Below are positions 4,375 to 43,302 of a stretch of 64,000 nt of DNA, piece by piece; the stretch's first letter is position 1; each line of letters begins with the position of its first letter. Both the position numbers and the translations under genes were made by a program. The stretch is from an uncultured delta proteobacterium. GTDB taxonomy: Bacteria; Myxococcota; UBA727; VGSZ01. A model generated the notes under the pieces. It made no database searches. It was not told the origin of the DNA and saw nothing but the letters and a program-made list of their open reading frames with translations. The stretch is from positions 352,001 through 416,000 of the forward strand of contig CAVZJB010000005.1 in NCBI GenBank assembly GCA_963775425.1. Direction: 5' to 3'.

Positions 4375-5312
4375 TCATCGATAGCCACGCGCACGCGGCG
4401 CTGGAGGAGGTGCTGCCCACGCGCTTCTTCGACGGGTGGGTCGACAACCTCGAGCGCTTGTTGCCGTCCGATGCGTCGCCGGCGCAGCGCGCGGCGCTCA
4501 GCGCGATGTTTCGCGCCGCAAACCAGGACCCGGGCTGCGACCGGCTGGTGGCCGAGATGGATCGCGCCGGCATCGCCAAGACGGTGCTGTTGATCGTCGA
4601 CTTCGGGTACGCGTATCCCGATCAGCTCGACGCGCTCGAGAGCATCTACGAGCTGCATCGTCAGCTCATGCAGCGCCACGCGGGCCGCTTCATCGTCTTC
4701 GCGGGCATCGATCCGCGCCGCGGTCAGGCGGGCGTCGACCTGCTGGAGCGCGGCCTGCGGGATTGGGGCTTTCGCGGGATGAAGATCTATCCCCCGTGTG
4801 GCTACTCGCCGGACGCGCGCGAGCTCGATCCCTTCTACGAGGTCTGCACGCACTACAGCGTCCCGGTGCTGTCCCACATCGGGCCGACGTCGCCCACGTT
4901 GTCGTTCAAGCACACGCGGCCCGAGCACATCGAGGACGCGGCGTTCCGCTTCCCCGGCGTGAACTTCATCCTCGGCCACGCCGGCGTCACGTGGCGCGCG
5001 GAGGCCAGAATGCTCGCGGCCTTCAGGCCGAACGTCTACCTCGACCTCTCGGGCTTCCAGCCGCACTGGAAGCGCGGGGAGCTCGACGGGATCCTGGCCG
5101 AGCACAAGCGTGACGGCGTGCTGCGCAAGCTCTTGTTCGGCACGGACTGGCCCATCCACTTCCTGCACGGCGATCAGCAGCAGTGCGTGGAGGCGTTCCG
5201 CGACTGCGCGCGGCGCGGGGTCATCACCGAGGAAGAGCTGGGCTGGCTCTTCTACCGGAACGCGCAGAGGCTGTTCGGGGACGCCGCCGGCGGCGAGGAA
5301 GCCGCGAGGTAG
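4371..5312 (+). CDS. Amidohydrolase_2 family metallohydrolase/decarboxylase
   Basis: IIDSHAH (HxH), GMKIYPPCGY, VLSHIG, ILGHAG, VYLDLSG, LFGTDWP. GTGA overlap with the upstream gene. Confidence 0.85.
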   Translation: MIIDSHAHAALEEVLPTRFFDGWVDNLERLLPSDASPAQRAALSAMFRAANQDPGCDRLVAEMDRAGIAKTVLLIVDFGYAYPDQLDALESIYELHRQLMQRHAGRFIVFAGIDPRRGQAGVDLLERGLRDWGFRGMKIYPPCGYSPDARELDPFYEVCTHYSVPVLSHIGPTSPTLSFKHTRPEHIEDAAFRFPGVNFILGHAGVTWRAEARMLAAFRPNVYLDLSGFQPHWKRGELDGILAEHKRDGVLRKLLFGTDWPIHFLHGDQQQCVEAFRDCARRGVITEEELGWLFYRNAQRLFGDAAGGEEAAR

Positions 5313-5359
5313 GGTGCGCGCCGCGCGCTGGGCTACCATTGGCTGGAAAGGGAACTCTC

Positions 5360-5584
5360 ATGTCAACCCGGCAGGCCGTGCTCGATGTGCTCGCCAAACA
5401 TGCGCAGTGCGACGCCGCCACGCTCTCACCCGAGGACGTCCTGGCCGACGTCGGCGTCAATTCTCTCAAGTTCATCATGGTGCTCCTGGAGATCGAGCAG
5501 GTGACGGGGAAGAAGGTCATGGACATCAACAAGATCGGCAAGCTGAAGACGGTGGGCGACGTCCTTGCGCTGACCGAGTCGTAG
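5360..5584 (+). CDS. Stand-alone acyl/peptidyl carrier protein (74 aa)
   Basis: MSTRQAVLDVLAKHAQ...LADVGVNSLKFIMVLLEIE...LKTVGDV. Phosphopantetheine Ser sits in GVNSL. ATG at 5360 follows AAAGGGA. Confidence 0.85.
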   Translation: MSTRQAVLDVLAKHAQCDAATLSPEDVLADVGVNSLKFIMVLLEIEQVTGKKVMDINKIGKLKTVGDVLALTES

Positions 5585-5593
5585 GGAACCCCG

Positions 5594-6019
5594 ATGCACG
5601 ACATCCGCCTCGCCCGACAAGACGACGAGATCGCCGCGACGTTCGCCGTGATGCACCAACTGCGCACGCATCTCGTCGAGAGCGACTACGTCGCGCTGGT
5701 GCGTAAGCTCCAGGCACAAGGGTACTTGTTGGCCTACGTGGACGACGGCGAGCGCGTGGTGGCCGCCGCCGGTTTCAAGCTCGGCGCCTCGCTCGCCTGG
5801 GGCGACTACGTCTATATCGACGACCTCGTCACCGACACCCGCGCGCGCTCGGCCGGGCACGGTGCGCGGCTGATGGCATGGGTCGCCGATTACGGCCGCC
5901 AACGCGGCTGCACCGAGCTCCACCTGGACTCCGGGGTGCAACGCTTCGCCGCGCACCGCTTCTATCTGCGCGAGCGCATGGACATCACCTGCCATCACTT
6001 CTGTCTACGCATCGCGTAG
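5594..6019 (+). CDS. GNAT family N-acyltransferase
   Basis: YIDDLVTD..ARSAGHGARLM (acyl-CoA binding motif A), LHLDSG, AHRFY. Confidence 0.9.
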   Translation: MHDIRLARQDDEIAATFAVMHQLRTHLVESDYVALVRKLQAQGYLLAYVDDGERVVAAAGFKLGASLAWGDYVYIDDLVTDTRARSAGHGARLMAWVADYGRQRGCTELHLDSGVQRFAAHRFYLRERMDITCHHFCLRIA

Positions 6020-6037
6020 GAAATGAGACTTCGCGGG

Positions 6038-6679
6038 TCAGCGCACCGGACCGGCGGGCACCGCGAGCGGGGCGCCAGACGCGGCCACGGCGCGCGCGAC
6101 GTCGGGCGGCAGCGCTCGCCGGCGGGGCGCCGGGGGCGCGTCGAGCAGCGCGCGGGCGAGCTCGGCGGCGGCCTCGAGGGCGCCGATGGGCACGCGATCG
6201 CTGGCGGCGACGTCGACGAGGAGGCGGCCGTCGGCGAGCTGGACGGCGAGCGCGCCGTGCGCGTCGAAGAGCGCGTCGACGGCGGCGCGCACGCGGGTCC
6301 GCGCACCGCTGCCGGCGGGAGCGTCGCCGCGCTCGCCGTCGGGGTGGCCCGGGCGCGCGAGGTCGAGGGGGAGCGCTTCGGGGCCGCGCGCGAGCGCGGC
6401 GCGGTAGATGAGGAGGCGGGGGGAGCGGTCGGCGCGCTCGATCCGTCCGCGGATCTCCCAGGTCGGCACCTCGTCGCCGCCGAGGCAGAGGCGGCCGCGC
6501 ACGAGCTCGAGCCGGGCCACGCCGTCGTCGAAGCGGGCGCACGGGTGCGCGAAGGGAAGGCCCGCCGTCGACGACCGCAGGCGCGGATCTCCGGCGAACG
6601 GCCTGCGCGCTGACCGGCCCGCGAGCGCCGCGAACACGGCGACGATGGTTCCGAAGATGATCGTGGCGGCGAGCCCCAT
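6038..6679 (-). CDS. Hypothetical protein with N-terminal membrane anchor
   Basis: MGLAATIIFGTIVAVFAALAG hydrophobic start. Protein-like composition, unlike the overlapping frames. Confidence 0.55.
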   Translation of the reverse strand: MGLAATIIFGTIVAVFAALAGRSARRPFAGDPRLRSSTAGLPFAHPCARFDDGVARLELVRGRLCLGGDEVPTWEIRGRIERADRSPRLLIYRAALARGPEALPLDLARPGHPDGERGDAPAGSGARTRVRAAVDALFDAHGALAVQLADGRLLVDVAASDRVPIGALEAAAELARALLDAPPAPRRRALPPDVARAVAASGAPLAVPAGPVR

Positions 6680-6790
6680 GCCGCCGATCCTAGCGTCCCG
6701 CCACGTCGCCGACGCGCCCGACGCGCGCGGACGACGCCGGCGCTCGCGCGCGTAGACATCTCGTCTCCGCGGGGAACGCCGCTGCGCCGC

Positions 6791-7747
6791 TCAACGCAGC
6801 GCGAGGACGCTCCGGGCGACGCCTTCGGCGTCGAGGCCGTGCTTTTTGTAGAGCGCCTTGGGGTCGCCGGACTCGCCGAAGACGTCCTGCACGCCGAGGC
6901 GCAGCAGGCGCGCCGGCGTCCGCGACGTCAACGACTCGGCCACCGCCCCGCCGAGGCCGCCGAGCACGTTGTGGTCCTCCACCGTCACCAGGCCGAGCTT
7001 GCACTCCCGGGCCGCCTTCTCGATGGCGTCGTCGTCCACGGGCTTGATGGTCGACGCGTTCAAGACGCGGGCCGACACGCCCTGCTTGGCGAGCAGCGCC
7101 GCCGCATCGACGGCGCCGCCGACGCAGCCTCCGGTCGCGAGGATGGCGACGTCGGTGCCCTCGAGGAGCGTGGGGAACCTTCCCGGCACGAAGCGGTAGC
7201 CCTCGGGGTGCACCCGCGGCACGTCCTGCCGCGTGAGCCGCAGGTACGCCGGGCGCGGATCCGTCGCGAGGTGGTCCACCATCTGCGCGGTCTCGACGTC
7301 GTCGGCCGGCTGCAACACCAACATGGTGGGCAGCGAGCGCATCAGCGCCAGGTCCTCGAGGCCTTGCTGCGAGTAGCCGTCGGGGCCGATGCCGACGCCG
7401 GCGTGCGTGCCGACGATGCGCACGCGCGCCTGCGAGTACGCCACGCTCATCTTGATCTGGTCGAAGCGCCCCGTGATGAAGCAGGCGAACGAGCAGCAAA
7501 ACGGCGTGTAGCCCGAGAGCGCGAGCCCGGACGCGGTGCCGAGCATGTTCGCCTCCTGGATGCCCATCTCGAAGAAGCGATCGGGGTGGGCCTTGGCGAA
7601 CACCACGGACATCGTGGACTTGCTGAGGTCGGCGTCGAGCACCACGACCTTGTCGTCGCGATCGCCGAGCGCCTTGAGGGCTTCGCCGAACGCCTTGCGC
7701 GTGGCCATGGGCTTGACGACGTCGACGGCTGCGGTGGGGTGGTTCAT
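6791..7747 (-). CDS. Transketolase, C-terminal (pyrimidine-binding) subunit
   Basis: ATRKAFGEAL, LDADLSKST, EMGIQEANM, GPDGYSQQ (His of GxSHQ replaced by Gln), YLRLTR, TVEDH..GGLG. True ATG at 7747 overlaps the upstream stop. Confidence 0.92.
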   Translation of the reverse strand: MNHPTAAVDVVKPMATRKAFGEALKALGDRDDKVVVLDADLSKSTMSVVFAKAHPDRFFEMGIQEANMLGTASGLALSGYTPFCCSFACFITGRFDQIKMSVAYSQARVRIVGTHAGVGIGPDGYSQQGLEDLALMRSLPTMLVLQPADDVETAQMVDHLATDPRPAYLRLTRQDVPRVHPEGYRFVPGRFPTLLEGTDVAILATGGCVGGAVDAAALLAKQGVSARVLNASTIKPVDDDAIEKAARECKLGLVTVEDHNVLGGLGGAVAESLTSRTPARLLRLGVQDVFGESGDPKALYKKHGLDAEGVARSVLALR

Positions 7748-8592
7748 GCGAGCTCCTTCATGGCGCGCTCGTACTCGTCTTTGTTCGGCGCCTTGCCGTG
7801 CCAGCCGACGGTGTCCTTCTCGAAGAAGCTCACGCCCTTGCCCTTGATGGTGTGGGAGAGCACCACCGTAGGCCTGGCGGTCTCCGCGCGCGCGGCCGCG
7901 CACGCCGAGCGAATCTCGTCGACGGAGTGGCCGTCGATGGTCAGCACGTTCCAGCCGAACGCGCGCCACTTTTCGGCCAGCGGCTCGAGGGGCATGACGT
8001 CGGAGACCAGGCCGTCGATCTGTCCGTTGTTCCAGTCCACGAACACCGTGAGGTTGGTGGCGCCGAGCTTGGGCGCCGACAGCGCCGCCTCCCACACCTG
8101 CCCCTCCTGCAGCTCGCCGTCTCCGGTGACGACGTAGCAGCGCCAGGCCGGGCCCTTGTCGCCGCCGGTCGACGCGGCGCCGCCGAGCTTGCCGGCGAGC
8201 GCGATGCCCTGCGCCACGCTCAGGCCCTGCCCGAGGGAGCCTGTGGACGCCTCGATGCCGGGGAGGAGCGCGTTGGCGGGGTGTCCCTGCAGGGGCGAGC
8301 CCAGCTCCCGCAGCGTGCTCAGATCGGACAGCGGGAAGTAGCCGCGCTCGGCCATCACCGCGTACAGCGCGGGGACGCCGTGGCCCTTGGAGAGCACGAA
8401 GCGATCGCGCTCGGGCCACGAGGGGTTCTTCGCATCGAAGCGCATCTCGCCCGAATAGAGGGTGAGGATGATCTCGAGGGCGGAGAAGCTCCCGCCGGGG
8501 TGGCCGCTGCCGGCCTTGGTGATGGCCTCGAGGATGTGGCGCCGGAGCTTCTTGGCGGTCTCCCGGAGCTCGTCCACGCTGATTTGCTGCAT
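7744..8592 (-). CDS. Transketolase, N-terminal (TPP-binding) subunit
   Basis: GSGHPGGSFS, RDRFVLSKGH, LQGHP, STGSLGQG, GDGELQEGQVWEA, TIKGKG, WHG. ATG at 8592. Confidence 0.93.
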   Translation of the reverse strand: MQQISVDELRETAKKLRRHILEAITKAGSGHPGGSFSALEIILTLYSGEMRFDAKNPSWPERDRFVLSKGHGVPALYAVMAERGYFPLSDLSTLRELGSPLQGHPANALLPGIEASTGSLGQGLSVAQGIALAGKLGGAASTGGDKGPAWRCYVVTGDGELQEGQVWEAALSAPKLGATNLTVFVDWNNGQIDGLVSDVMPLEPLAEKWRAFGWNVLTIDGHSVDEIRSACAAARAETARPTVVLSHTIKGKGVSFFEKDTVGWHGKAPNKDEYERAMKELA

Positions 8593-8647
8593 GCCCCCGC
8601 TTATGTTCCCGGTGCGTCGACGACAAGAGGTGGCGTAGCTTCCGCCC

Positions 8648-10624
8648 ATGGAAAACGGTTCGCCCGAGGCATCGCTCCTCGCGAAGAGCCCCGCGCCCGC
8701 GGCGCGCGGCGTGTTCCGCTTCATCGATCGGCTGCTGCCGGCGGTGGTGCGGACCACGGCCGACGAGCTGCGGCGCGGTCGCATCTTCCTGGCCATCTGG
8801 GGGCTGTTGTCCCTGGCGGCGTGGTTCTTCGCGTGGGCCATCCTCAACGACGGGGCCACGTCCGGCGTCCCCGCAAACGCCGTCGTCCTCATCATCGGCG
8901 GCGCGCTCGCCACGATCATCCTCCCCATGGCGCACTGGCTCGAGAGCGTCCGCCGCGCAGGCGCCGTGCTCACCGTGGAGTTCGTCGCCGTCGTGCTCTT
9001 CCTCGGCTGGACGGGCAGCGGTCCCGGCGACGCCTCGCAGTGGTTCCTGATGCTCGCGCCCCTCGTCGGCGCGTTTCTGGTCGGCACGCGCGCGGGCCTC
9101 GTGGCCGCCGGCGTGTCCATCGTGGGCACGTTCGGCCTCTACGTCGCCAAGGACGTGCTCCAACTGCCGTTCGGCGTGCGCGACGCCACCGCCGACTGGT
9201 TCGACGCCATGGGAGGCGCGTTCGTCATCGGCATCGCCGCCGTCATCGCCTTCGCGTGGGAGGCGGCGCAGCGTGACAGCTTGACCCGCGTCGCCGAGGC
9301 CCTGCAGGAGCTGCGCGGCAAGAACAGCGAGCTCGAGGCGTTGGCGCAGCGGTTCGCCGAGGCGCGGGATCGTGCCGTCGAGGAGAACCAGCGCAAGGGC
9401 GTGTTCCTCGAGAGCATGCGCACCTTCTCGGAGCAGCAAGGCCACGCGCTCGAGCGCACGCGCCTGGCCACCGCGCAGCTCGCCGACACCATTCGCGCCA
9501 TCTCGACGTCGGTGGAGACGCTGGCGGCGTCGAGCCAGGCCTCGGACACCACCGTCTCCGACATGGCGGAGAGCGCGTCGCGGGTGTCGCAGACGGCGCA
9601 GTCGCTGGTGGCCGGCGTCGAAGAGGCGGACCGGGCGCTCGCGGGGCTGACGGCGGCGGTGGCGTCGGTGCAGGCGCAGTACGACGACCTGCGGCGCGGC
9701 GCCGAGAGCACGGCGGCGGCCATGCTCGAGATGGAGCGGTCGGTGTCGCTCGTGGAGCAGCGCGCGGTGCGTACGGTGGAGCTGTCAGACGCCATGATCC
9801 GCGACGCCGAGCGTGGGCGCGAGGCGGTGCGGCGCACCATCGCCGGCGTCGACGACATCCGGGCGAACGCGCGCCTCGCGGGCGAGGTGATCCGCACGCT
9901 CGACGGCCGCGTCGCCGCCATCAGCGCCATCAACAGCGTCATCGACGAGGTGGCGGTGGAGACCAACGTGCTTGCGCTCAACGCGTCCATCATCGCGGCG
10001 CAGGCGGGGGAGCGCGGACAGGGCTTCGCCGTCGTCGCGGACCAGATGCGCTCGCTCGCGGCGCGCACCGCGCTGTCCACGCGCGAGATCTCCCTGGTCA
10101 TCCGCGCGGTGCAGTCGGAGGCAAAAAACGCCGTCGACGCCATCCAGAAGGGTGAGCGCGCCGTCGACCAGGGCGTCACGTTGTCCGAAGACGCCGCCGG
10201 CGCCCTCGAGCAGATCGTGTCCTCGGCGCGCCAGGCCACCGAAGAGGTCCGCGGCATCGAGCAGGCGACGATGGAGCAGGCCAAGCGCGCCCGCGACGTC
10301 GGGGGGGCGATGGGGGAGGTCACGCGCCTCGTCTCCGACGCCAGCGCGGCCACCTCCGAGCACGGGCGCTCGGCGCGCCTCATCGAGGCCACCATGCAGC
10401 GCCTGCGCGCGGCCGCGCCCGACCTCGAGCAGCGCAGCCGCCAGCAGGCCGACGGCGCACGCCTCGCGCGCGCGGCGCTCGCAAAGATCTCGGAGATGGC
10501 CAGGCGCCTGTCCACGGTGCAGAGCGACCAGACCCGCTCGAGCGCGCAGACACTGCGCGCCGTCGAGGAGATCCAGCGCGCGCAGCGCGGCCAGGACGAG
10601 GCCATGCGCCAGCTCTCGGAGTAG
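8648..10624 (+). CDS. Methyl-accepting chemotaxis protein with multi-pass N-terminal membrane sensor
   Basis: Signalling hairpin IDEVAVETNVLALNASIIAAQAGERGQGFAVVADQMRSLA. About 6 hydrophobic segments in the first 200 aa, then long coiled coils. Confidence 0.9.
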   Translation: MENGSPEASLLAKSPAPAARGVFRFIDRLLPAVVRTTADELRRGRIFLAIWGLLSLAAWFFAWAILNDGATSGVPANAVVLIIGGALATIILPMAHWLESVRRAGAVLTVEFVAVVLFLGWTGSGPGDASQWFLMLAPLVGAFLVGTRAGLVAAGVSIVGTFGLYVAKDVLQLPFGVRDATADWFDAMGGAFVIGIAAVIAFAWEAAQRDSLTRVAEALQELRGKNSELEALAQRFAEARDRAVEENQRKGVFLESMRTFSEQQGHALERTRLATAQLADTIRAISTSVETLAASSQASDTTVSDMAESASRVSQTAQSLVAGVEEADRALAGLTAAVASVQAQYDDLRRGAESTAAAMLEMERSVSLVEQRAVRTVELSDAMIRDAERGREAVRRTIAGVDDIRANARLAGEVIRTLDGRVAAISAINSVIDEVAVETNVLALNASIIAAQAGERGQGFAVVADQMRSLAARTALSTREISLVIRAVQSEAKNAVDAIQKGERAVDQGVTLSEDAAGALEQIVSSARQATEEVRGIEQATMEQAKRARDVGGAMGEVTRLVSDASAATSEHGRSARLIEATMQRLRAAAPDLEQRSRQQADGARLARAALAKISEMARRLSTVQSDQTRSSAQTLRAVEEIQRAQRGQDEAMRQLSE

Positions 10625-33383: not shown

Positions 33384-35804
33384 ATGGCCCCCGGACGGCT
33401 CTTCTCCGCGCCGCGCGCGCCCGCCGAGGGCGAGGTCGATCTGCGCAGCCCCATCGGCGCCTTCGGCCGCTACGACCTCCTCGAGAAGATCGGCGTCGGT
33501 GCGGCGAGCGAGACGTTCGTCGCGCGGTCCGACGGCTTCGAGGGCTTGTTCCGCTTGAGCGCGCTCAAGCGCATGAAGGCCGCGCTGTGTGCGGACACCG
33601 CCCTCGTCTCGCGCTTCATCGAGGAGGCGCGGCTCGCGGTGCGCGTGGAGCACCCGGGCACCGTCACCGTCGACGACTTCGGGCGCGTCGGCGGCGTCTA
33701 CTTCATCGCGTTCGAGCTCGTCGACGGCGTCACGCTCGAGGAGCTCATCGCGCGGCTGGCCGCGCGCGGCCTCGAGCTCGACCCTCGCGCGGCGGCCTAC
33801 ATCGTGCGCGCCGTGGCGCAGGCCGTTGACGCCGTGCACCGCACGCGCGGCGCCGACGGCAACGTCCTCGGCCTCGTCCACGGCGACCTCCAGCCCAAGA
33901 ACGTCCTCGTGTCGCGCGACGGCAAGGTCAAGCTCCGTGGCTTTGCGGCGCCCTCCATCTTCGCGGACGTCGCCACGCTCAAGGACGCGGTCGGCGTCGC
34001 CGGCGTCGCGCACCAGGCGCCCGAGATCCTGGCGGGGGCGTCACCGTCTTCGCGCGGGGACGTCTGGAGCCTCGGCGTGCTGTTGTTCGAGCTGCTCACG
34101 GGTGGCCGCATGTTCACCGGGGGGCGCGTCGACGACGTCGTCACCGGCGTGCGCTCGGTGCCCGTCGCGCCCCCGTCCGCGCGCCGGCCGGGCCTGCCGG
34201 GCGCGCTCGACGCCATCGTCGACGAGGCGCTCGTGCGGGTGGCCGATCAGCGCCCCGGCGACGCGCGCGCGTGGTCGCTCGCCATCGACGCCTTCCTCGA
34301 CGGCGCCGGCTACGAGGAAGCCGCCTTCGCGAGCACCCTCGCGGACCTCGACGACGACGACGCGCGCGGCGGCCCGGTCGGCCGGCAGCCGACGCGCGTC
34401 ACGCGCAACCCGCGCGGCTCCACGGGCAAGCGGTCGAGGTCCGTGGACCTGCCGGCGGCGCCCATGCTCGTCGAGCAGCTCCGCAAGGACCCGGGGCCGT
34501 GGGGCCTCGTGCGGCTCGCGGAGCGCACCGCCGCCGACGGCCGCGTCGACGAAGCGCGGGCCATGTTCCGAGCGGCTGCGGTGCTGTTCGCCTCGCGCGG
34601 GCTGCTCGCGCACGCCCTGTGCGCGTACGACGGGGCGCGCGCCAGCCTCGGCGCCGACGACGTGTCCTTCGATCTCAAGAAGCTCTCCGAGCTCGGCGGC
34701 GGGGACCTCGCGCTGCGGCAACGCGAGCTGCGACGGGTGGGCGGGATCGTGTACCTCGAAGCATTGCGTGCGCAGAGCGACGGACTCGACCGGGGCATCG
34801 CGGTGGCCACGCCGTTTCTGAGCGCGCTGCCGCCCGAGGCGTTTGCGCGGCTGGCGTCGCTGTCGCGCGTTCGCCGCGTGCTCCCGAGCAGCCACGTGTT
34901 GCGCGAGGGAGAGCCCGGCGACTCCTTGTTCGCCATCGGTGAGGGGCGCCTCGTCGTCACCTGCACACCTTCGAGCATCGATCCCGGCGACGGCGCCGTC
35001 GCCATCGACGAGGCGCCCGACGAGTTCGAGGAGCGCACCGATCCCGGCCTCGGCGTCAAGCGCGTCTCCGGCGTGGTGGTGGCGCCTGGTCTGGAGTCGG
35101 AGCTCGGGCGCCAGCTCGACGACGACAACCGCGAGCTGGCCATCGTGGATCCGTCGCAGACGCGCGTGTTCCTCTCGGCGCTCACGAGCGGCGATCTCTT
35201 CGGCGAGTTCTCCTTCCTCACCGGACGTCCGCGCAGCGCGAGCGTGGAGGCGGTGACGTCGTGCCGCCTGGTGGAGATCACCAAGCGCGCCGTGGGCGGC
35301 CTGCTCGATGAGCACCTCGAGCTCCGTGACGCGCTCGAGGCGTTCTACAAAGAGCGCGTGCTCGAGTGGATGCTCGCCAAAAACGAGGTGTTCTCGCTGC
35401 TCGAGCCGGAGACACGGCGCATGTTGCTCTCGCAGTGCGGCGTCTACGACATCCCCGCCGGAAAGACCGTGGTGCGGGAGGGCGAGCTGCACGACGCCAT
35501 GTATTTCATCAAGCGCGGCGAGGTGGAGGTCACCACCACCGACGCCGGCATCCAGGTCTTCATCAACAAGCTCGGCGCCGGCGAGTTCTTCGGCGAGATC
35601 GCCGCGCTCGAGGGCGGGCCCCGGCGGGCGAGCGTCAAGGCGGTCACGGATCTCGAGGTCTTTCGCATCACGCGCAAGGATCTCGCCCACGTCCTGCACG
35701 ACGCCCCCGACGTGAAGCGCCGCCTCGAGCAAGCCATGCGCGCGCGCTCCGCCGAGCTGTCGCGGCGCATCCACGAGCAGCGCAAAGTCCTCGCGTCCAC
35801 GTAA
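33384..35804 (+). CDS. Ser/Thr pseudokinase - TPR-like helices - two cyclic-nucleotide-binding domains
   Basis: Kinase: IGVGAASETF, ALKRM, HGDLQPKNV, KLRGFA (no DFG), HQAPE, DVWSLG. cNMP domains: GDLFGEFSFLTGRPRSASV and GEFFGEIAALEGGPRRASV. Confidence 0.88.
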   Translation: MAPGRLFSAPRAPAEGEVDLRSPIGAFGRYDLLEKIGVGAASETFVARSDGFEGLFRLSALKRMKAALCADTALVSRFIEEARLAVRVEHPGTVTVDDFGRVGGVYFIAFELVDGVTLEELIARLAARGLELDPRAAAYIVRAVAQAVDAVHRTRGADGNVLGLVHGDLQPKNVLVSRDGKVKLRGFAAPSIFADVATLKDAVGVAGVAHQAPEILAGASPSSRGDVWSLGVLLFELLTGGRMFTGGRVDDVVTGVRSVPVAPPSARRPGLPGALDAIVDEALVRVADQRPGDARAWSLAIDAFLDGAGYEEAAFASTLADLDDDDARGGPVGRQPTRVTRNPRGSTGKRSRSVDLPAAPMLVEQLRKDPGPWGLVRLAERTAADGRVDEARAMFRAAAVLFASRGLLAHALCAYDGARASLGADDVSFDLKKLSELGGGDLALRQRELRRVGGIVYLEALRAQSDGLDRGIAVATPFLSALPPEAFARLASLSRVRRVLPSSHVLREGEPGDSLFAIGEGRLVVTCTPSSIDPGDGAVAIDEAPDEFEERTDPGLGVKRVSGVVVAPGLESELGRQLDDDNRELAIVDPSQTRVFLSALTSGDLFGEFSFLTGRPRSASVEAVTSCRLVEITKRAVGGLLDEHLELRDALEAFYKERVLEWMLAKNEVFSLLEPETRRMLLSQCGVYDIPAGKTVVREGELHDAMYFIKRGEVEVTTTDAGIQVFINKLGAGEFFGEIAALEGGPRRASVKAVTDLEVFRITRKDLAHVLHDAPDVKRRLEQAMRARSAELSRRIHEQRKVLAST

Positions 35805-35904: not shown

Positions 35905-35962
35905 CTTCATTTCTTTGGGCTTGTCGTCGTCGATGATCGGCGCGACGCGCCCCGCGTCGGCG

Positions 35963-38900
35963 TCAGCCCGCGCGGACGGTGACGGCGGGGCGGGCGGCGG
36001 CGCCGACGGTCTCGAGGAAGCGCTCCTTCATGGAGGCGAACATCGCCGGCGCCGGGTCGACGCGCTCCTTCGGCTTCTTCTTCGCCGGCGCCTTTCCGCT
36101 CGCGGCGGCGGCGGCGGCCACGGCGCGCGAGACGCTCGCCGACTCGGCGTCGCGCTTGGCGGCCTCGAAGCCCGCGAGCAGCATGGCCAGGCGCTCCAGC
36201 GGATCGGAGACGCCGGCGAGGTCGAAGACCTCCTCGGGGCCCAGGGCGCGCAGCGCGTCGCCCAGCGCGGCCGGGCCCTTCTTCACGAGGCCGTGGGCGT
36301 CGTTTACGCCGTGGGCCTCGAGCACCGCGCGGCCGCGCGGGCCGTCGAAGAACGCGGCGGCGGCGTCGCCGACGACGAAGTCGCTGAGGCGGTCGAGGTC
36401 GAGGCCGGCGACGAAGAACCGGTCGAGCAGGGTGACGCCGATCTCCACCAGCGCGTCGCGCGAGAACGCCCGCAGCTCGCGCGGGTCGATGCCGGCGTCG
36501 AGGTAGCGGAGCAGGGCGCGCGTGTCGAACAGCGGCGCATAGCGCTTCTCGTGCTCGAGCACGTGCTCGTCGCTCTCCGGCACCTCCGGCGCAACGTCGA
36601 GCGCGGTGACGTCGCCGAGCACCTCGACGTGCCCCGTGGCCTCGTCGAAGCGCATGCCGATGTTGGCGAAGCTCGCCTTGAGCACGTCGACGAGCGGCGC
36701 AGCCTTCGCGGCGACGTCGCCGACCTTGCCGAGCTCGACGAAGCCCGCGTAGCGCTCGGCGCGGGCGCGCGCGAACGCGAGCTCGCCGAGCCGTATCTCC
36801 TTGGCGCCCTCGTTGAGCACGCCCACCTCGCTGTGCAGCGCCCAGTCGACGAAGCTCTTGTCGGGGCTGTCGACGAGGAGATCGAGGTCGCTGCCGCCGC
36901 CGAAGCGCGCCTTGGTGATGCCGCCCATGAGGTGGAGCGAGGCGTCCTTGGCGCGCGGATCCCGCAGGAGCACCCGCGCGGCGTGGAGCAGGTCGCCCTC
37001 CTTCTTCTTGAGCGCGGCCAGCGCCTCGGCGTCGGTGTACGGCGCGGCGAGGTCTCGCTCGAGCTTCTCCGCCCAACGCGACGACATGCGCAGCCGCTCC
37101 GGTCGCTCGGCGAGGAAGGCGAGGTCGGCGCTCTCGAAGATGCGCCACGGCAACCCGTTCAAGAGGTAGCGCGCCGCGTTGGTGCGCATGAGCGTGTACT
37201 CGGGGCCGGCGAAGCGGTCGCCGAGGATGCGCTCCGCGAGCCCGGCTGCGCGCGCGAACGCCGTGGGCGGCGCCGGAGAGAGGTGCTCGGGCGTCGTGAG
37301 GGGCTCGACGCTGACGATGTCCATGGACGCGAGCAGGGCGTCGCCCGCCTCGTCGAACGCGTGCTTGACGGCGCCGTCGGCGAGGTGCGCCTCGAGCGTC
37401 TGCTCCGTGCCCGGGAGGTCGGAGACGATGTGGAGCGCGCCGAAGTCGATGTAGCTGTCCTCGAACGCCTGCGCGAAGAAGCCGCTCTCCATCTCCACGG
37501 CGTCGAAGCCCGCGATGCGCATGTCGGCGATGAGCTCCGCGGTCTCCTCGAGCGGTGAGCGCACGAGGGCCGTCTTCGCCTCCAGCGTGGCCGCCAGCCC
37601 TGCGTCGTCGATGTACGGCTTGAGGAGGTTGTCCACACGAAGCGCGCGGCCGTCGTGGGCTTCGATGCGCGAAGGGAGCACGAGGTCGCCGAGGGCGCTG
37701 TCGACGCCGAGGCCGCCGGCGGTGCCCGCGACCACCACTTTCTGCACGCCTTGCTCGAGGAGCGCCGTCCCCAGGTGCCGCGCGAGCTCTCCGTACGGCA
37801 TCCGCACGATCCGCAGCGCCTTGGGCCGGCCGTCGCTCGTGCGCACGACGAGCGCCGCCTGGTCGAGCATGTCGCCGCCGACGTCGGCGACGTACGCCGC
37901 CGATCCATCGGCCAACGCGCGGGCAGCGTCGACGAGCGCGGCCTGATTCGGCGTTGTGCGCGCGGATGCGCGGGCCGCCCGCTCCTGCAGCGAGGCGACC
38001 GCGCGCTCGACGGACTCCACCGCGCGCTTGCGGCGGAACACGAAGTGCGCCGCGCTCTGCGCGCCGCGCCCGCGCTCCACGAGCGCGAGCGCTTCGGCCA
38101 CGGCGGGCGGGCGCGCGTCCGCGGGGACGGCGGCGAGGACGTCGACGGCGGCGGCGGCGGCGGCGCGTCGCGCGAGATCGCGCTTGAACGTGTTGACGAA
38201 GCCGACGACGACGAGGTCCGGCGCCTGGCCCGTGGCGAGCACCGCGCGCGTATAGGAGCGCACGGCCTCGACGTCGGCGCGCATGGGCTCGCGGCGCAGC
38301 TCGATGTTCTTCCCGGAGACGCCCGCCATGCGCCACAGGAGCTGCTGGTGAAAGACGCGCTCGAAGCCCCACAGCTCCGTCATCACCCAGCGCAGCTCGC
38401 CGGACTCCGCGTTCTTGGCGAGCCAGAGCTGGTTGAAGCGCTCGCCCTTGGGCACCTCGACGCGCGCGACCTCGCCGAAGCCGCGCGCAGCGAGCGATGC
38501 GAACGTCGCCTCGCGGCTGCCCTCGTGGATCTCGACGATCCTCCCGTGGGCCACGACGTCGTCGATCACCGCAGGCCACAAGCGCGCGCGCACGTAACCG
38601 TCGACGTCGTGCATCGAGTGCGGCGCGCTCGGGTCGACGGCGTCCACCTCGGGGAAGTAGCCCGCCCGCACAAGCTCGAGGGGCACCGGCGCGCCGTCGA
38701 CCTGCGGCAGCGGCTGGGCCGGCAGGAGCGCGAAGCGGTCGCGGAAGGTGAGCTCGCCGCGCGTGTGCGTGAGCGCCTCGGCGGCGGCCGCCACCAGGGC
38801 GCCGGCGCGCTCCACGGAGGCGCCGGCGGCGACGAGGGCGGCGGCGGCGACGGCGTCGGCATCGCCTCGCGACAAGCCGTGCGCCCGTGGCGCCGGGGGC

Positions 38901-40246
38901 TCCGCGCGCGCCTCGTCCCCCAGGGCCGCGAGCCTCGCGCGCGCTCGGTCCACCAGGGCGGCGAGCGCGGGGTCCGCGGCTTCGGTGGCCTCCGCCGCAA
39001 CCGCGTCGAGCACGAGCCGCGCGGTGTCGCGCAGCGCGGCGCGGTCGAGCGTCCGGCGGAGCGCGCGCTCGTCGTCGTCGGCGACCGCGCGCAGCGGGGC
39101 GAGCTCGGCGTCGAGCCCCATGTCGGCGAGGGCGGACGCGAGGCCGGTGCGCTGCAGGAAGCCGATGAGCGGCGCCCCCGAGCGCGCGGTGGCGCCGAGC
39201 TTGCGCTTGACGATGGTGCGCAGCGTGTACGCGATGTCGACGACGTCGCCCTGCGGCGGTGCGCGGCCCGCCTTCTTGTAGGCGTGGCGGATGCTCCCGA
39301 GCGCGTCGTCGTCGGGCCTCGTGCCGCCGGTCTGCTCGCGCCACCACGCCGCCGACGCCGCCAGGTTCCCCTCGCGCCGGTGCCGCGCGACCGCCCGGCG
39401 CAGCTCCGCCTCGCCGTCCTCGTCGAAGGAGAGCTGCGGATAGCGGGCGAGCAGCTTGAGCGCGCGCACGGCGTGGCTGAGCCGGCCGTAGGGCTCGCCG
39501 TCGCCGAAGAAGACGTGCACGTGCCCGGCCTCGAGGTCGGCGAGGCCGCGGCCCGAGAAGTCGAAGAGCGTGCCGTCGGCGAGCACGCCGAGCTTGTCGA
39601 TGGTGGCGCCGCGCCGCGTACCCCACGGCGCCGGCTTTTTGAGATCGGCGGCGAAGTCGACCTTCACCTCGGGGGCGATCTCCTTGCACAGCGCGAGCGC
39701 CTCGTCGCGAAACGCGGGGTAGCCGGGCTCCGAGGAGTCATAGAGGAAGTCGATGTCCGAGCCGGCGCCGCGCGCCTCGCCGAGGAGCAGGTCGCGCGCG
39801 CTCCCGCCCCAGACGCCGAAGGTCACGCCGCGCCTCTTCGACAGATCGAAGAGCGCCCGCAGGAGCGCGTCGTCCCGCGCGGCGCGCTCGACGACGGCGC
39901 GGGCCGAGCGCGCCGCGCCGTGGCCGCCCTCGGTACCCGCGCGCTCTCCGCCGCCGGGCCCGGCGCGCCCGACGGGCAGCCGGGCCAGCACCGCGGCCGC
40001 CTCGGCGGGTCCGGTGGCGACGTCTCGCCAGGTGAGGCGCGCTCGCTCGCGCGCCGTCGACGCGTCGCCCGCTTCGCCCGCGTCGAACGCGTCGAGCCCG
40101 CCCGCGCGCGCGCCCTCCGCCGCGACGACGTCGACGACGTCGACGCCGTCTGCGACGAGACCCGCGGGCGCGTCGACGACGGCGGCCCCCGCGTCGGCGG
40201 GACGCGGGGGCGGCTTGCGCGGCGGACCAGGCGGGCCGGGCTTCAT
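35963..40246 (-). CDS. 1427-aa multidomain nucleotide-processing protein: CCA/poly(A)-polymerase-like head + PNP/UDP nucleoside phosphorylase-like domain + minimal nucleotidyltransferase
   Basis: VWGGSARDLLLG...SDIDF, RRGATIDKL, LFDFSGRGLADLEAG; VVVAGTAGG..LGDLVLP, AVEMES, IVSD; LHLMGGITKARFGGGSDLDLLV. Pro-rich N-terminus. Confidence 0.75.
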   Translation of the reverse strand: MKPGPPGPPRKPPPRPADAGAAVVDAPAGLVADGVDVVDVVAAEGARAGGLDAFDAGEAGDASTARERARLTWRDVATGPAEAAAVLARLPVGRAGPGGGERAGTEGGHGAARSARAVVERAARDDALLRALFDLSKRRGVTFGVWGGSARDLLLGEARGAGSDIDFLYDSSEPGYPAFRDEALALCKEIAPEVKVDFAADLKKPAPWGTRRGATIDKLGVLADGTLFDFSGRGLADLEAGHVHVFFGDGEPYGRLSHAVRALKLLARYPQLSFDEDGEAELRRAVARHRREGNLAASAAWWREQTGGTRPDDDALGSIRHAYKKAGRAPPQGDVVDIAYTLRTIVKRKLGATARSGAPLIGFLQRTGLASALADMGLDAELAPLRAVADDDERALRRTLDRAALRDTARLVLDAVAAEATEAADPALAALVDRARARLAALGDEARAEPPAPRAHGLSRGDADAVAAAALVAAGASVERAGALVAAAAEALTHTRGELTFRDRFALLPAQPLPQVDGAPVPLELVRAGYFPEVDAVDPSAPHSMHDVDGYVRARLWPAVIDDVVAHGRIVEIHEGSREATFASLAARGFGEVARVEVPKGERFNQLWLAKNAESGELRWVMTELWGFERVFHQQLLWRMAGVSGKNIELRREPMRADVEAVRSYTRAVLATGQAPDLVVVGFVNTFKRDLARRAAAAAAVDVLAAVPADARPPAVAEALALVERGRGAQSAAHFVFRRKRAVESVERAVASLQERAARASARTTPNQAALVDAARALADGSAAYVADVGGDMLDQAALVVRTSDGRPKALRIVRMPYGELARHLGTALLEQGVQKVVVAGTAGGLGVDSALGDLVLPSRIEAHDGRALRVDNLLKPYIDDAGLAATLEAKTALVRSPLEETAELIADMRIAGFDAVEMESGFFAQAFEDSYIDFGALHIVSDLPGTEQTLEAHLADGAVKHAFDEAGDALLASMDIVSVEPLTTPEHLSPAPPTAFARAAGLAERILGDRFAGPEYTLMRTNAARYLLNGLPWRIFESADLAFLAERPERLRMSSRWAEKLERDLAAPYTDAEALAALKKKEGDLLHAARVLLRDPRAKDASLHLMGGITKARFGGGSDLDLLVDSPDKSFVDWALHSEVGVLNEGAKEIRLGELAFARARAERYAGFVELGKVGDVAAKAAPLVDVLKASFANIGMRFDEATGHVEVLGDVTALDVAPEVPESDEHVLEHEKRYAPLFDTRALLRYLDAGIDPRELRAFSRDALVEIGVTLLDRFFVAGLDLDRLSDFVVGDAAAAFFDGPRGRAVLEAHGVNDAHGLVKKGPAALGDALRALGPEEVFDLAGVSDPLERLAMLLAGFEAAKRDAESASVSRAVAAAAAASGKAPAKKKPKERVDPAPAMFASMKERFLETVGAAARPAVTVRAG

Positions 40247-40252
40247 CGACGC

Positions 40253-42112
40253 TCAGCCGACCACGAGCACCGAAGCGGTGACGTTGTCGCTCTTGCCGCG
40301 TCCGTCGAGGACGTGCTCCTTGGCGTAGTCGATGATCGCCTGCGTCACGCCGGCCGCGTCCTTGCCCGGGATGAGCGAGGCGATCTCGCGCGTGGTGCGC
40401 TCGCCGTTCAGCTCGCTCCAGGGCTTGCCCGCGGCAAAGTCCTTCTTCTGCGCCGACAGGTTGGCGTCGGCCACGCCGTCGCTCACGCAGACGATGACGT
40501 CGCCCTTTTCGACGTTGAAGCGCGAGTAGTCCGCCTGCGGGTTGTCGCCGCCGAGGCAGGCCGTGATGACGTTGGCGACCTTGAGGCCGGCGTTGGGGTC
40601 GCCCGATCGCTTGGCCATCTCGTCGCCCAGGTTGTGCGCTTCGGTCTGGCCCTTCAGGCGGCCGTTCTTGTCGAACACCATCACCGCGGAGTCGCCGCAG
40701 TTGACGACGTGCGCGACGCCGTTTTGCACCACGGCGGCGGCGAACGTGGTGGCCGCGTTGGCGTGCAGGCCCTTCACCTCGCGGTCCGCGTCGACGACGG
40801 CGCCCTTCATGAGCGCCTCCGCGGAGCCGCCCGCGGCGATCTTCTGCGCGGCGTCGGCGAAGGTCCTGGCCGCGATGAGGCTGGCGGCGCCGGTCTGGTT
40901 CTTGACGTGCCCCTCACCGCCCGCCTGATCGAACGCGCCCGCGAACGCGGTCTCGTGCGCGACGCCCTTGCCCTTCGGGATGACGCCGAGGACCGCGCCG
41001 TCCTCGTTGTAGTCGGCGTAGCCGATGCCGCGCCACGTGAACACCGCGCCGCTGACGCCGGCGCCGCGCACGGTGTCGGGCCGCGTGGACTCGAAGCCGC
41101 CGGCGGCCACGAGCACCTGCGGGTCCACGCGTCGCGGCTCCGCTTCTTCGGCGACGGCGGCGGAGGCGTTCGCGCGACCTGCTCGCATGTCGCCGAGGTG
41201 CTTGGCGAGGCTCTTTCCGAGCGTGGTGAGCTGTTCGAGCCCGAGCATCCTCTGTCCGCCCTCTTCCCTGCGCGTGCCGGTGAGCCCGCCCGGGCCCGAG
41301 CCCGTCACCCACACCCGCCCTTCCGGCGTATCGATGCAGTCGCCGATCTTGAGCGGGTTCGCCTCCACGACCTGCGCGGCGGCGAGGTTCTTGGTGTTTA
41401 CCGAGCCGTCAACGTCGAGGAACTCGGCGACGAGCGCGCCCGCGCCGACGCTCTGCACGACGCCCAGGCTCGCCGAGCCGTCGCTGCGGGGGACCGAGAG
41501 CAGATCGCCGGGCGCATAGCGGTCGAGGCCGGCGATGCTGCCGCCGTGCTGTGCCAGCGCGCCGAGGTCGAGCCAGCCGTACTCGGGCTCGGGATGCTCC
41601 TTGACCCACTCCAGGTTCTTGCGCATGCCCTCGACGACGTCACCGCCGCGGTCCTCGGCGGCGATGCGCAGGGTGTGGATGGCCGGCACGAGGTCGTTTT
41701 GCAGGCGCTCGCGCACGTCGCGCGGGAGCATGTTCATGATGGCGGGCTCGAAGAGCGCCGCGATGTGATCGAGGCGCTGCCCGGCGCGGCCGAGGAGGTC
41801 GAGCTCGTTCTCGGTGACGAGGCCGTCGCGGTAGACCTCGGCGAGCTCGCCGACCGCCTTGTTTAGCTGCGTCTGTATCGCCTGGGTCCCCTGCTCGGAC
41901 GTCTTGGGCGCCTTGTCCAGGAGCGCGCTCATGCTCGGCAACAGGCCGCGCCCCTTGAGCGCGGCGCGCGCCTTGAGGAACTCGTCGACGTCACCGGGCT
42001 TGAGGAGCGCCGTGACCTCGGCCATGGCCGCCTTCTCTTTGGGCTTGGCGACCCCGTCGGCGACGGCGAGCTGGGGGATCTTGGGACGCGGGGAGCCGAC
42101 GCGCACGCTCAT
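40253..42112 (-). CDS. PP2C/PPM-like phosphatase with long N-terminal helical and SH3/Tudor-like regions
   Basis: YNEDG, AFDQAGGEG, ATTFAAA, NCGDSA, AHNL, NVITACLGG, CVSDGV, GKSDNVT. Confidence 0.8.
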   Translation of the reverse strand: MSVRVGSPRPKIPQLAVADGVAKPKEKAAMAEVTALLKPGDVDEFLKARAALKGRGLLPSMSALLDKAPKTSEQGTQAIQTQLNKAVGELAEVYRDGLVTENELDLLGRAGQRLDHIAALFEPAIMNMLPRDVRERLQNDLVPAIHTLRIAAEDRGGDVVEGMRKNLEWVKEHPEPEYGWLDLGALAQHGGSIAGLDRYAPGDLLSVPRSDGSASLGVVQSVGAGALVAEFLDVDGSVNTKNLAAAQVVEANPLKIGDCIDTPEGRVWVTGSGPGGLTGTRREEGGQRMLGLEQLTTLGKSLAKHLGDMRAGRANASAAVAEEAEPRRVDPQVLVAAGGFESTRPDTVRGAGVSGAVFTWRGIGYADYNEDGAVLGVIPKGKGVAHETAFAGAFDQAGGEGHVKNQTGAASLIAARTFADAAQKIAAGGSAEALMKGAVVDADREVKGLHANAATTFAAAVVQNGVAHVVNCGDSAVMVFDKNGRLKGQTEAHNLGDEMAKRSGDPNAGLKVANVITACLGGDNPQADYSRFNVEKGDVIVCVSDGVADANLSAQKKDFAAGKPWSELNGERTTREIASLIPGKDAAGVTQAIIDYAKEHVLDGRGKSDNVTASVLVVG

Positions 42113-42555
42113 GGCAGCTCCCTGGTGACGACGGCGCGCGCCGACGGCGAGCGCTCCGCGAGCGCCCGCGCGGCCGCGAAATCCACCTCGGCGCTCTTCT
42201 TGTCGGAGAGGCCGAGGAGCTCCGCACGCATGAGGAGCGCGCGAGCGACGTCACCGCCGGACTTTGCGACGTCTGCGTCGATGAAGCGCGTGAGGGCGTC
42301 GACGGCGGCGGCGCTGCAGCCGGCGGCCTGCTCGACGGCGCCGAGGTGCAGCAGGTGCTGCGCGTTGGCGGGATCGAGGGCGACGAGGCCGGTGAAGACG
42401 GTGCGGGCGACGTCGAAGCGCTGCGACTGCAGCGCCGCCGCGCCCACGCGGGCGATGGCGTCGATGTCCGCCGGCGACAGCCGGCCCGCGTCCTTGAGGG
42501 CGACGTGCCCGTCGACGATGCCCTGAAGGAGGGCGAGGGCGTTTTCGGTTTGCAT
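42109..42555 (-). CDS. Small TPR protein resembling SycD/LcrH class II type III secretion chaperones
   Basis: LKDAGRLSPADIDAIARVGAAALQSQRFDVARTVFTGLVALDP..HLLHLGAVEQ matches the LcrH-type first TPRs as I recall them. About 150 aa. Alternative GTG start at 42564. Confidence 0.6.
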   Translation of the reverse strand: MQTENALALLQGIVDGHVALKDAGRLSPADIDAIARVGAAALQSQRFDVARTVFTGLVALDPANAQHLLHLGAVEQAAGCSAAAVDALTRFIDADVAKSGGDVARALLMRAELLGLSDKKSAEVDFAAARALAERSPSARAVVTRELP

Positions 42556-42567
42556 GGCGGTCACATG

Positions 42568-43302
42568 CTACCCCACTGCCGGCGGGAGCAACTTGCGCCC
42601 GGGCACACCCCAGTCCTCCACGGTCCAGCCCCGCCTGCGGGCCACCCGGCGCAAGCGGAGATCGGGGCTGACGACGACGGGGTGCCCGACCGCCTCGAGC
42701 ATGGGCAGGTCCGAGGCGCTGTCCGTGTAGAACGCGCACTCGGACAGGGCGATGGAGAGCTTCTGCGCGCACGCTTCGGCGTGCGCCACCTTGCCGGCGC
42801 CGTAGCACACGGGCTCGACGGGCTCGCCGGTGAAGACGCCGTCATCGACGACGAAGCGGTTGGCGAGGAAGCCGTCGCACCCAAGCACGTCGGCGATGGG
42901 AGCGCTCAGGTAGTTCGTCGACGACGTCAACAAGAAGCAGAGATCGCCCGCGTCCTTGTGGCGCCGGATGGCGTCGCGCGCGCCGGGGCGGATGGTGCCG
43001 ATCAGCTCTTCGCGCCAGAACTCCAGCGTCCGATCGATGACGTCGCGCTCCCTGGCGCCGCGCAACGTCTTGATGGCCACGCGGATGACGTCGTCGGCCT
43101 CGATGAGCCCGAGGCCGTACAAGCCCACCCAGAAGCTCGCGCGCAAAGCTTGCAGCCGCGTGATGTGACCGGAGCGAAGCTCGCGCCGCACCCAGAGCGC
43201 CGCCGAGTTCACGGCGAGCACGGTCTTGTCGACGTCGAAGAACGCGATTGCCGTCACTGCCGAGCTCGCCGACGGGGAATCTGCCGTCGCCGGACGTCCC
43301 AT
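42568..43302 (-). CDS. HAD-IB family hydrolase (SerB/PSPase-like)
   Basis: FFDVDKT, LLTSS, GAGK, FYTDSASDLPML..VG.P. Start may be GTG 43257. Confidence 0.88.
   Translation of the reverse strand: MGRPATADSPSASSAVTAIAFFDVDKTVLAVNSAALWVRRELRSGHITRLQALRASFWVGLYGLGLIEADDVIRVAIKTLRGARERDVIDRTLEFWREELIGTIRPGARDAIRRHKDAGDLCFLLTSSTNYLSAPIADVLGCDGFLANRFVVDDGVFTGEPVEPVCYGAGKVAHAEACAQKLSIALSECAFYTDSASDLPMLEAVGHPVVVSPDLRLRRVARRRGWTVEDWGVPGRKLLPPAVG

Follow-up and report, generated by a model that had tools for sequence, protein, structure and literature searches.

A rare four-domain protein of an uncultured delta proteobacterium joins a predicted PNP-fold nucleosidase, possibly AMP-nucleosidase-like, to two nucleotidyltransferase domains

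The stretch of DNA analysed here (the window; 64,000 nucleotides of contig CAVZJB010000005.1 from an uncultured delta proteobacterium) encodes, on the (-) strand at 35963..40246, a protein of 1427 amino acids (P0001) with four domains in the order N-A-B-C: a class II nucleotidyltransferase head, an alpha/beta domain, a nucleosidase of the PNP/MTAN fold and an MNT-type nucleotidyltransferase. From sequence comparison we tentatively read the core of P0001 as an AMP-nucleosidase-like hydrolase of nucleoside monophosphates (NMPs), with the fused nucleotidyltransferase domains feeding or regulating this core. A helical region together with A and B would constitute a nucleotide N-glycosidase acting like AMP nucleosidase (Amn) and would cleave an NMP-type substrate (AMP, possibly nicotinamide mononucleotide, NMN, or a nucleotidyl adduct) to the free base and ribose-5-phosphate. 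Domain N, a base-blind class II head, and domain C, of the MNT type, are both predicted to be active and would either generate this substrate by converting nucleoside triphosphate (NTP) to NMP-X or NMP or switch the nucleosidase by (auto)nucleotidylylation, a mode of regulation for which the action of MntA on HepT is a precedent in the excerpted account of that system (PMC7641770).

Domain B (residues ~662-985; 37292..38263, (-) strand) is a nucleosidase of the NP-I (PNP/MTAN/Amn) fold, identified through Pfam, AlphaFold2, Foldseek and HMMER. Pfam places PNP_UDP_1 on residues 827-951 of P0001 (E = 1.8e-11), and the AlphaFold2 model of residues 483-985 (61 sequences), with a predicted local distance difference test score (pLDDT) of 94.4 and a predicted template-modelling score (pTM) of 0.92, retrieves MTA/SAH nucleosidases, purine nucleoside phosphorylases and AMP nucleosidases in Foldseek at E values of 2e-9 to 2e-8. 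The PNP/UDP phosphorylase-type domain described in an earlier note, which was made from the letters of this DNA alone, is thus borne out. The VIA alignments cover model residues 180-496, only ~210 of them aligned, and the Foldseek matches indicate that the PNP fold begins at the VVVGF strand (~679) and continues only after a helical insertion of some 100 residues; in the secondary structure of the model this insertion separates the first strand from the remainder of the fold (residues ~684-780; 37907..38197, (-) strand). The motifs of the domain are G841-T-A-G-G (GTAGG, 37712-37726), E901, E918-M919-E920 (within AVEMES, 37484-37501) and S942-D943 (within IVSD, 37418-37429). HMMER alignments to MTANs set AVEMES, with E918-M919-E920, on the ribose-binding (V)EME motif and S942-D943 on the catalytic Ser-Asp pair. 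Among 56-57 aligned relatives G841 is kept in 57 of 57, G844 in 55 of 57, E901 in 53 of 57, E920 in 55 of 56 and D943 in 49 of 56, and both the fold and the catalytic residues of domain B are intact as judged from sequence and model.

Two groups of characterized enzymes resemble this domain. MTAN and the hexameric PNP/MTAP enzymes share the GxAGG, EME and SD motifs with P0001, which is, however, multidomain and matches these families far below their cut-offs (for example, 15 bits against 169); moreover, the family-specific SP..ET motif of its relatives, which contains the conserved E901, is not explained by MTAN, PNP or MTAP. In Amn, as in P0001, the catalytic PNP/NP-I fold stands behind an extra N-terminal domain. 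The excerpted text on the Klebsiella pneumoniae enzyme names M404, E405 and D428 as residues conserved among Amn relatives (PMC9584410); on that excerpt, Glu and Asp are 23 residues apart both in Amn (E405-D428) and in P0001 (E920-D943), in each case with Met preceding the Glu. In Amn these are the purine/ribose-binding residues. Ribose-5-phosphate, the product of Amn, also fits the links of the P0001 family to ribose-5-phosphate isomerases described below. P0001 differs from Amn in its alpha/beta domain A, which is not AMNp_N, in the ~100-residue insertion into the PNP fold and in its two fused nucleotidyltransferases. Three other PNP_UDP_1 genes are found elsewhere in the genome.

The remainder of the core precedes domain B. 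A helical region (residues ~340-489; 38780..39229, (-) strand), delimited by matches in relatives and by a family alignment (A1), has no family match of its own. Matches in relatives start at query residues 283-341, including those of homologs that lack the N head, and this region is consequently assigned to the family core and not to N. It is followed by domain A (residues ~490-661; 38264..38779, (-) strand), a conserved alpha/beta domain modelled with a pLDDT of 90.6, for which Foldseek returned no PDB match at E<=1e-3. His543 is conserved in 54 of 56 aligned relatives, Tyr551 in 51 of 55 and His633 in 47 of 54, and Asp547 and Arg630 are conserved as well, a pattern that suggests a ligand-binding or catalytic role. 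The domain that had been left unassigned near 38200-38700 is therefore real and conserved, and its importance had been missed. One candidate identity, AMNp_N, was raised by an Atlas lead (0.78) and was not confirmed by Pfam on either the protein or the genome. No Amn N-domain is among the matches listed from structure searches with domain A, and the Amn N-terminal domain is dominated by a long helix in the excerpted description (PMC9584410), unlike domain A.

The chemistry proposed for the core follows from the company it keeps. Ten loci were compared (the window, L005-L008 and L023-L027), and partner domains in relatives were sought by running Pfam on the 127 highest-ranked of 150 listed matches. 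The locus L023 encodes, at 3339-9074 on the (+) strand, a 1911-residue frame with the order RpiA-A-B-C and about 470 further C-terminal residues without a family match; its RpiA, N-terminal to A-B-C, passes the equivalog cut-off (214.3 bits; cut-off 192). In P0007 (1 of 127) A-B-C is joined to RpiB, and at L008 RpiB is fused to a Fic protein encoded beside A-B-C. RpiA and RpiB are non-homologous and have independently been joined to the core, and ribose-5-phosphate is most simply the product or the substrate of that core. Among the reactions of NP-I-fold enzymes, phosphorolysis of a nucleoside yields ribose-1-phosphate and that of an NMP yields ribose-1,5-bisphosphate; ribose-5-phosphate as the product would point instead to NMP hydrolysis of the Amn type. 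Where present, Rpi would drain the sugar phosphate released by the core.

Other partners handle nucleotides. NadD-like CTP_transf_like domains occur in 12 of the 127 scanned relatives, their best NCBIfam matches being all nicotinate-nucleotide adenylyltransferase and below the equivalog cut-offs; Fic occurs in one, a UshA/NadN-like 5'-nucleotidase is fused in one (P0071), and HIT/HinT is fused to domain C, without the other domains, in P0046. Fic is fused to A-B at L026 and encoded directly upstream of A-B at L025, and at L006, L007 and L008, which belong to the same taxonomic family as the window, the same Fic subfamily lies divergently adjacent to A-B-C. One Fic subfamily is thus linked at five of the ten loci, in four genera, and its motif reads HPFMDGNGRTAR, the canonical AMPylation motif. 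Over the ten loci, C is fused or adjacent in seven, Rpi in two (with P0007 in addition) and N in two. Since each of these partners (NadD-like, UshA-like, HinT, Fic, MNT and class II head proteins) handles an NMP moiety, by making, transferring or releasing it, we place NMPs at the centre of the family; AMP- or NMN-type compounds or adducts would come to the core from transferases or pyrophosphatases. The earlier note had overlooked that the family is linked to ribose-5-phosphate isomerases, to NadD-like enzymes and to Fic; these associations suggest that the core hydrolyses nucleotide N-glycosides. Radical SAM was found in two further relatives with the A-B module, P0093 (1852 amino acids, also with YidD and two PLD domains) and P0120 (1164 amino acids). 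AP_endonuc_2 (1 of 127) and DUF6929/DUF6910 (1 of 127) each stand with C only, and at L023 a gene for a 188-residue TPR protein overlaps the stop of the 1911-residue frame.

The complete architecture is rare, in keeping with the unfamiliarity claimed for it at the outset. A word-indexed search of 5.8 billion proteins returned only P0002 (1301 amino acids, N-A-B-C; 43% identity to P0001 over 90% coverage) and P0003 (1069 amino acids, without N), and when residues 483-1427 were compared exhaustively with 1.84 billion representatives, 235 proteins passed E<=1e-3, of which 90 reached <=1e-10 and 23 reached <=1e-30. When the query was cut into N, A, B and C and these were sought in 151 proteins of the family, the order A-B was the commonest (79), followed by B only (25), C only (20), A-B-C (8) and A only (7), with N-A-B-C, N-A-B and B-C in four proteins each. 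Named homologs are annotated 'hypothetical protein', 'Fic family protein' or 'eCIS core domain-containing protein', and literature searches, with supplements outside their scope, returned no description of this N-A-B-C architecture. A scan of genome contigs with alignment A1 left one locus from 37 pattern matches. At L024, in another family of the phylum, an N-A-B gene (P0008) is followed by a separate adjacent C gene (P0011), which indicates that the four domains belong together functionally even where two genes encode them. P0001 is 43% identical to the N-A-B protein and 39% to the C protein of this split pair but shares only 30-32% identity with the A-B-C proteins from its own family, which together with L023 are 43-76% identical among themselves. 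Because P0001 is closer to L024 than to the copies of its own family, it appears to represent a distinct subfamily that was separately acquired or retained.

ATP nucleosidase effectors of the PNP fold occur in CBASS and Detocs. It is conceivable, if unlikely, that P0001 is likewise a regulated nucleotide-depleting toxin or immune effector, in which A-B destroys ATP, AMP or NAD precursors and the nucleotidyltransferases serve in cis as an 'antitoxin' or switch; nucleotidylylation would then hold the nucleosidase off until a signal arrives (phage infection, stress, or kinase/phosphatase input). Three of the 127 scanned relatives (P0068, P0098 and P0105) carry an N-terminal eCIS_core/DUF4157 domain and have the A-B module at the C-terminus, the arrangement of eCIS-associated polymorphic toxins, in which DUF4157 lies N-terminal to the toxin domain according to the excerpted survey (PMC8213781). 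These relatives indicate that the A-B module can be injected cargo and make nucleotide depletion plausible as a harmful activity; P0001 itself is without eCIS_core/DUF4157 (no PF13699 match). MNT antitoxins neutralize their partner toxin by adenylylation in the excerpted account cited above (PMC7641770), which would suit a cis-acting switch. The distribution is also patchy, A-B being matched in 12 of 301 sampled genomes of the phylum (10 of 255 among high-quality genomes) and domain N, within the class, in the window genome only (1 of 38), and the greater likeness of the window copy to that of another family has the same bearing. On the other side, PADLOC gave no significant match (PADLOC-DB 2023, with newer systems outside it), its sole hit being to PDC-S09 over the MNT motif (E = 0.0098); the neighbours are ordinary signalling and transport genes, none of them a mobile-element or defence gene; nothing resembling an immunity gene was seen next to P0001; and the RpiA and RpiB fusions are hard to reconcile with a pure toxin. 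A search of the window's own genome for eCIS_core found no match, but the control genomes were equally silent and the result is uninformative. The proposal of a toxin, effector or defence enzyme is hence supported by some relatives, and in P0001 itself it meets neither a marker nor a significant PADLOC match nor a defence island.

The MNT-type domain C comprises a nucleotidyltransferase part of the Pol-beta superfamily (residues ~986-1170; 36737..37291, (-) strand), recognized by Pfam and profile search, and a helical tail of about 200 residues (residues ~1171-1375; 36122..36736, (-) strand), which was delimited by alignment, carries an EHEK motif at 1231-1234 and has no family match. The MNT motif G[GS]-x9-13-DxD is found as MGGITKARFGGGSDLDL at residues 1107-1123 (GG-x10-D1120-L-D1122; LHLMGG at 36920-36937 and SDLDLLV at 36872-36892) and is preceded by a conserved RW..K..R....PY helix. 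Across 21 C domains, Ser1119, Asp1120 and Asp1122 reach 90% conservation or more, and so does the preceding R-W..K....P motif. The profile of these 21 sequences reaches Cmr1-MntA (9z7q, E = 0.004), ANT(3'')(9) (0.048) and HI0073 (0.064) in the PDB. What had been described as a minimal Pol-beta nucleotidyltransferase signature is thus in place, with the qualification that P0001 falls just under the NTP_transf_2 (PF01909) cut-off (19.3 bits against 21), whereas the same domain in homologs scores 24-30 bits (P0011 30.3, P0004 26.6, P0015 29.4). Domain C shares the GS/GG-x(9-13)-DxD motif with the MNT/MntA proteins of HEPN-MNT modules, and Cmr1-MntA is its best PDB match by profile. It departs from them in the size of its nucleotidyltransferase part (~185 residues), in the helix before and the 200-residue helical tail after it, and in having no HEPN partner in the protein, being instead fused or adjacent to a nucleosidase; no HEPN family was detected in P0001 or in the eight neighbouring proteins scanned.

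Domain N (residues ~115-330; 39257..39904, (-) strand), identified by alignment and profile search, is a divergent class II nucleotidyltransferase head of the CCA/poly(A) polymerase type. Motif A, GGSARDLLLG, occupies residues 147-156 (39779-39808) and is followed by SDIDF (39746-39760). Eight N domains, those of P0001 and of seven other proteins among the matches, were assembled into a profile; G146, G147-G148, D152, G156, D164, D166, D197, G213 and K218 are invariant in all eight, the carboxylates D164, D166 and D197 being among them. In this class of enzymes, motif B (RRD) recognizes the ribose 2'-OH and motif D (EDxxR) templates the base. In P0001, RRD has become RRG (residues 211-213, within 39593-39619), with Gly213 invariant in the eight domains and the variants RRG, YRG, DRG, TEG and SEG among them, and EDxxR has become GRLSH (residues 254-258, within GEPYGRLSH at 39473-39499); the HMMER alignment sets DDPTR of 3h37 opposite GRLSH, and no acidic pair is conserved at this position among the eight N domains. 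The isolated domain N of P0001 scores 17.2 bits with PolyA_pol (PF01743) against a gathering score of 23 (E = 0.12 on the whole protein). The class II head with RRG and GEPYGRLSH that the earlier note had recognized accordingly stands by its motifs and by profile, its Pfam match alone being weak. Despite the sub-threshold Pfam score, homology to class II nucleotidyltransferases is supported by the profile, which reaches the CCA-type enzyme of Thermotoga maritima (3h37) at E = 6.6e-8; it further matches the A-adding enzyme 4wby (1.4e-4), 1vfg (7.6e-4), Escherichia coli poly(A) polymerase (3aqk, 1.5e-3) and CCA enzymes (1.9e-3), and its top PDB matches are class II nucleotidyltransferases only. 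With CCA-adding enzymes, A-adding enzymes and poly(A) polymerase I the domain shares motif A (GGxxRDLLLG...DxD), the third carboxylate and the neck helix R..R; it differs from them in the loss of RRD and EDxxR, in a PolyA_pol score below gathering and in a tRNA-binding body and tail that go undetected in P0001, the PDB matches spanning profile positions 36-227 of 390, that is, the head and first neck helices.

These matches would also suit an RNA 3'-end enzyme, derived from a CCA-adding enzyme and engaged in tailing or repair of tRNA or other RNA with the remaining domains as accessories, since the N profile finds its best PDB matches exclusively among CCA-adding enzymes, A-adding enzymes and poly(A) polymerases. 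We consider this very improbable: both specificity motifs are lost, the matches are limited to the head and the start of the neck, and N is absent from 143 of the 151 family members. In addition, two canonical PolyA_pol-head genes lie on other contigs of the genome (120.8 and 61.4 bits). As had been proposed, P0001 is not the housekeeping CCA enzyme, judging by the lost motifs, the undetected body and tail and the two canonical copies elsewhere.

The loss of base and ribose specificity with retention of the carboxylates in N admits another scheme, in which B would take adenine off ATP to leave ribose-5-triphosphate and the nucleotidyltransferases would attach ribose-5-phosphate to a hydroxyl of a protein or small molecule. 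In CitG/MdcG chemistry and in ATP nucleosidases the separate steps invoked here have their counterparts, and the cascade would parallel the attachment of a prosthetic group by CitG/MdcB plus MdcG/CitX. Pfam finds PolyA_pol in six of the eight N domains and MdcG (PF10620) in four, the best at E = 1.6e-6, with P0008 just above the cut-off (26.9 bits; cut-off 26.5), and in the eight N-bearing proteins of the 151 a nucleosidase always accompanies N. The scheme is nevertheless wholly inferential and in our estimate improbable: the N domain of P0001 itself has no significant MdcG match, the Rpi fusions indicate free ribose-5-phosphate, and N-like proteins without A-B stand alone on two metagenomic contigs. 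The latter came from a scan with alignment A2, which yielded three short contigs with N-like open reading frames (ORFs) only; on L037 (1573-3120) and L038 (2-1462), of ~57% GC, proteins of about 500 residues carry an N-head-like domain without A, B or C, so that the base-blind class II head appears to occur independently of the other domains as well. No standalone N-domain relative of 210-671 amino acids was present among 8000 scored candidates. In its boldest form, which we hold to be slightly more doubtful again, P0001 would be a self-contained phosphoribosylation machine in which B strips the base from an NTP and both base-blind nucleotidyltransferases pass ribose-5-phosphate to a protein or metabolite. 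If true, this would add a new route for the modification of metabolites or, post-translationally, of proteins, with the logic of CitG/MdcG, possibly deployed as an injected toxin in relatives.

The gene encoding P0001 is a single coding frame. The window has a G+C content of ~73% and long ORFs in several frames; in the frame of P0001, GC at codon positions 1/2/3 is 0.79/0.51/0.95, and in successive stretches of 100 codons GC at the third position (GC3) is 0.90-0.99 throughout, against 0.38-0.67 at position 2. Such uniformly high GC3 marks a single genuine coding frame as opposed to a shadow ORF of high-GC DNA; the overlapping ORFs at 35907..39689 (-) and 37655..41866 (+) have their GC peak at position 1, and the coding signature is found only in 35963..40246 (-). 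The 1427-residue ORF described previously is therefore present on the (-) strand, and a coordinate check found all of the quoted motifs where they had been placed. Residues 1-114 (PGPPGPPRKPPPRP...; 39905..40246, (-) strand) are Pro/Ala/Gly/Arg-rich, non-conserved and absent from P0002 in alignment A1; their GC3 is coding-like (0.90-0.93), and the true start codon, which is uncertain, may lie further downstream. It is hardly credible that P0001 is an assembly misjoin or a set of separate genes fused through sequencing error. N-A-B and C are two genes at L024, and one lost stop could fuse such genes; however, GC3 is uniform over the domain junctions, the contig is 792,604 nt long, the independent proteins P0002, P0004 and P0006 have the identical N-A-B-C order, and A-B-C lies in a single chain in eight further proteins.

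P0001 is probably the last gene of a four-gene operon, HAD-TPR-PP2C-P0001, whose junctions are 3, -4 and 6 nt, all on the (-) strand. The first gene (42568..43302) encodes a HAD-IB family phosphatase of 244 amino acids (TIGR01490, 132.8 bits against a cut-off of 98.3) and the second (42109..42564) a TPR protein of 151 amino acids, overlapping by 4 nt the start of the third (40253..42112), which encodes a 619-residue protein with a PP2C-type Ser/Thr phosphatase domain at 411-560 and ends 6 nt before the ATG of P0001. The first ~400 residues of the PP2C protein match no Pfam or NCBIfam family. Because P0001 is probably co-transcribed with this phosphatase, it is probably under Ser/Thr phospho-signalling control in this genome. 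Downstream and convergent (33384..35804, (+) strand) lies the gene for a Ser/Thr kinase of 806 amino acids with two cyclic-nucleotide-binding domains; further neighbours in the window are a K+/H+ antiporter, a Zn-dehydrogenase and a CHAD protein. The best NCBIfam match of the 151-residue TPR protein is to SycD/LcrH-type type III secretion chaperones (E = 6.9e-11; 42 bits against a cut-off of 104.8), and two FHIPEP (SctV/FlhA-type) export-gate genes lie on other contigs of the genome. This likeness could reflect secretion of the operon's large proteins or ordinary cross-matching among TPR proteins. An all-against-all BLAST of the ORFs of the ten loci found none in common with the window except kinase domains (L006 and L007), and kinases with TPR and MshEN domains occur near the homologs at those two loci. 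Neither Fic nor Rpi has a tblastn match in the window, which carries N instead.

Several observations weigh against an AMP-nucleosidase-like core under phospho-signalling control. By the PNP fold alone, hydrolases and phosphorylases cannot be told apart, nor can NMP, nucleoside, ATP and NAD substrates. Domain A has no fold match, and the N-terminal domain specific to Amn is absent: AMNp_N (PF10423) has no match in P0001 at E<=1 in Pfam and none in the whole genome, the control genomes being positive in 3 of 14. The links to Rpi amount to three loci or proteins of ~160 seen, and no Rpi-Fic partner was found in the window's genome with that query. The operon partners PP2C, TPR and HAD are not conserved at the nine other loci, so that the signalling link may be local or accidental. 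Finally, a toxin role would suit the eCIS-marked relatives no less than a metabolic role.

Should the reading of the core as an AMP-nucleosidase-like NMP hydrolase prove true, P0001 and its relatives would form an uncharacterised family of nucleotide N-glycosidases with a new accessory domain, domain A, in recurrent partnership with AMPylating enzymes (MNT, Fic and the class II head), NadD-like enzymes and ribose-5-phosphate isomerases. The head of a CCA enzyme would have been recruited for a non-tRNA role, and members of the family would, as we infer, be candidates for orphan activities such as NMN nucleosidase. The family would then offer a new way to destroy or remodel AMP- and NAD-type nucleotides, with one module acting both inside the cell and, in some bacteria, as cargo of contractile injection systems.

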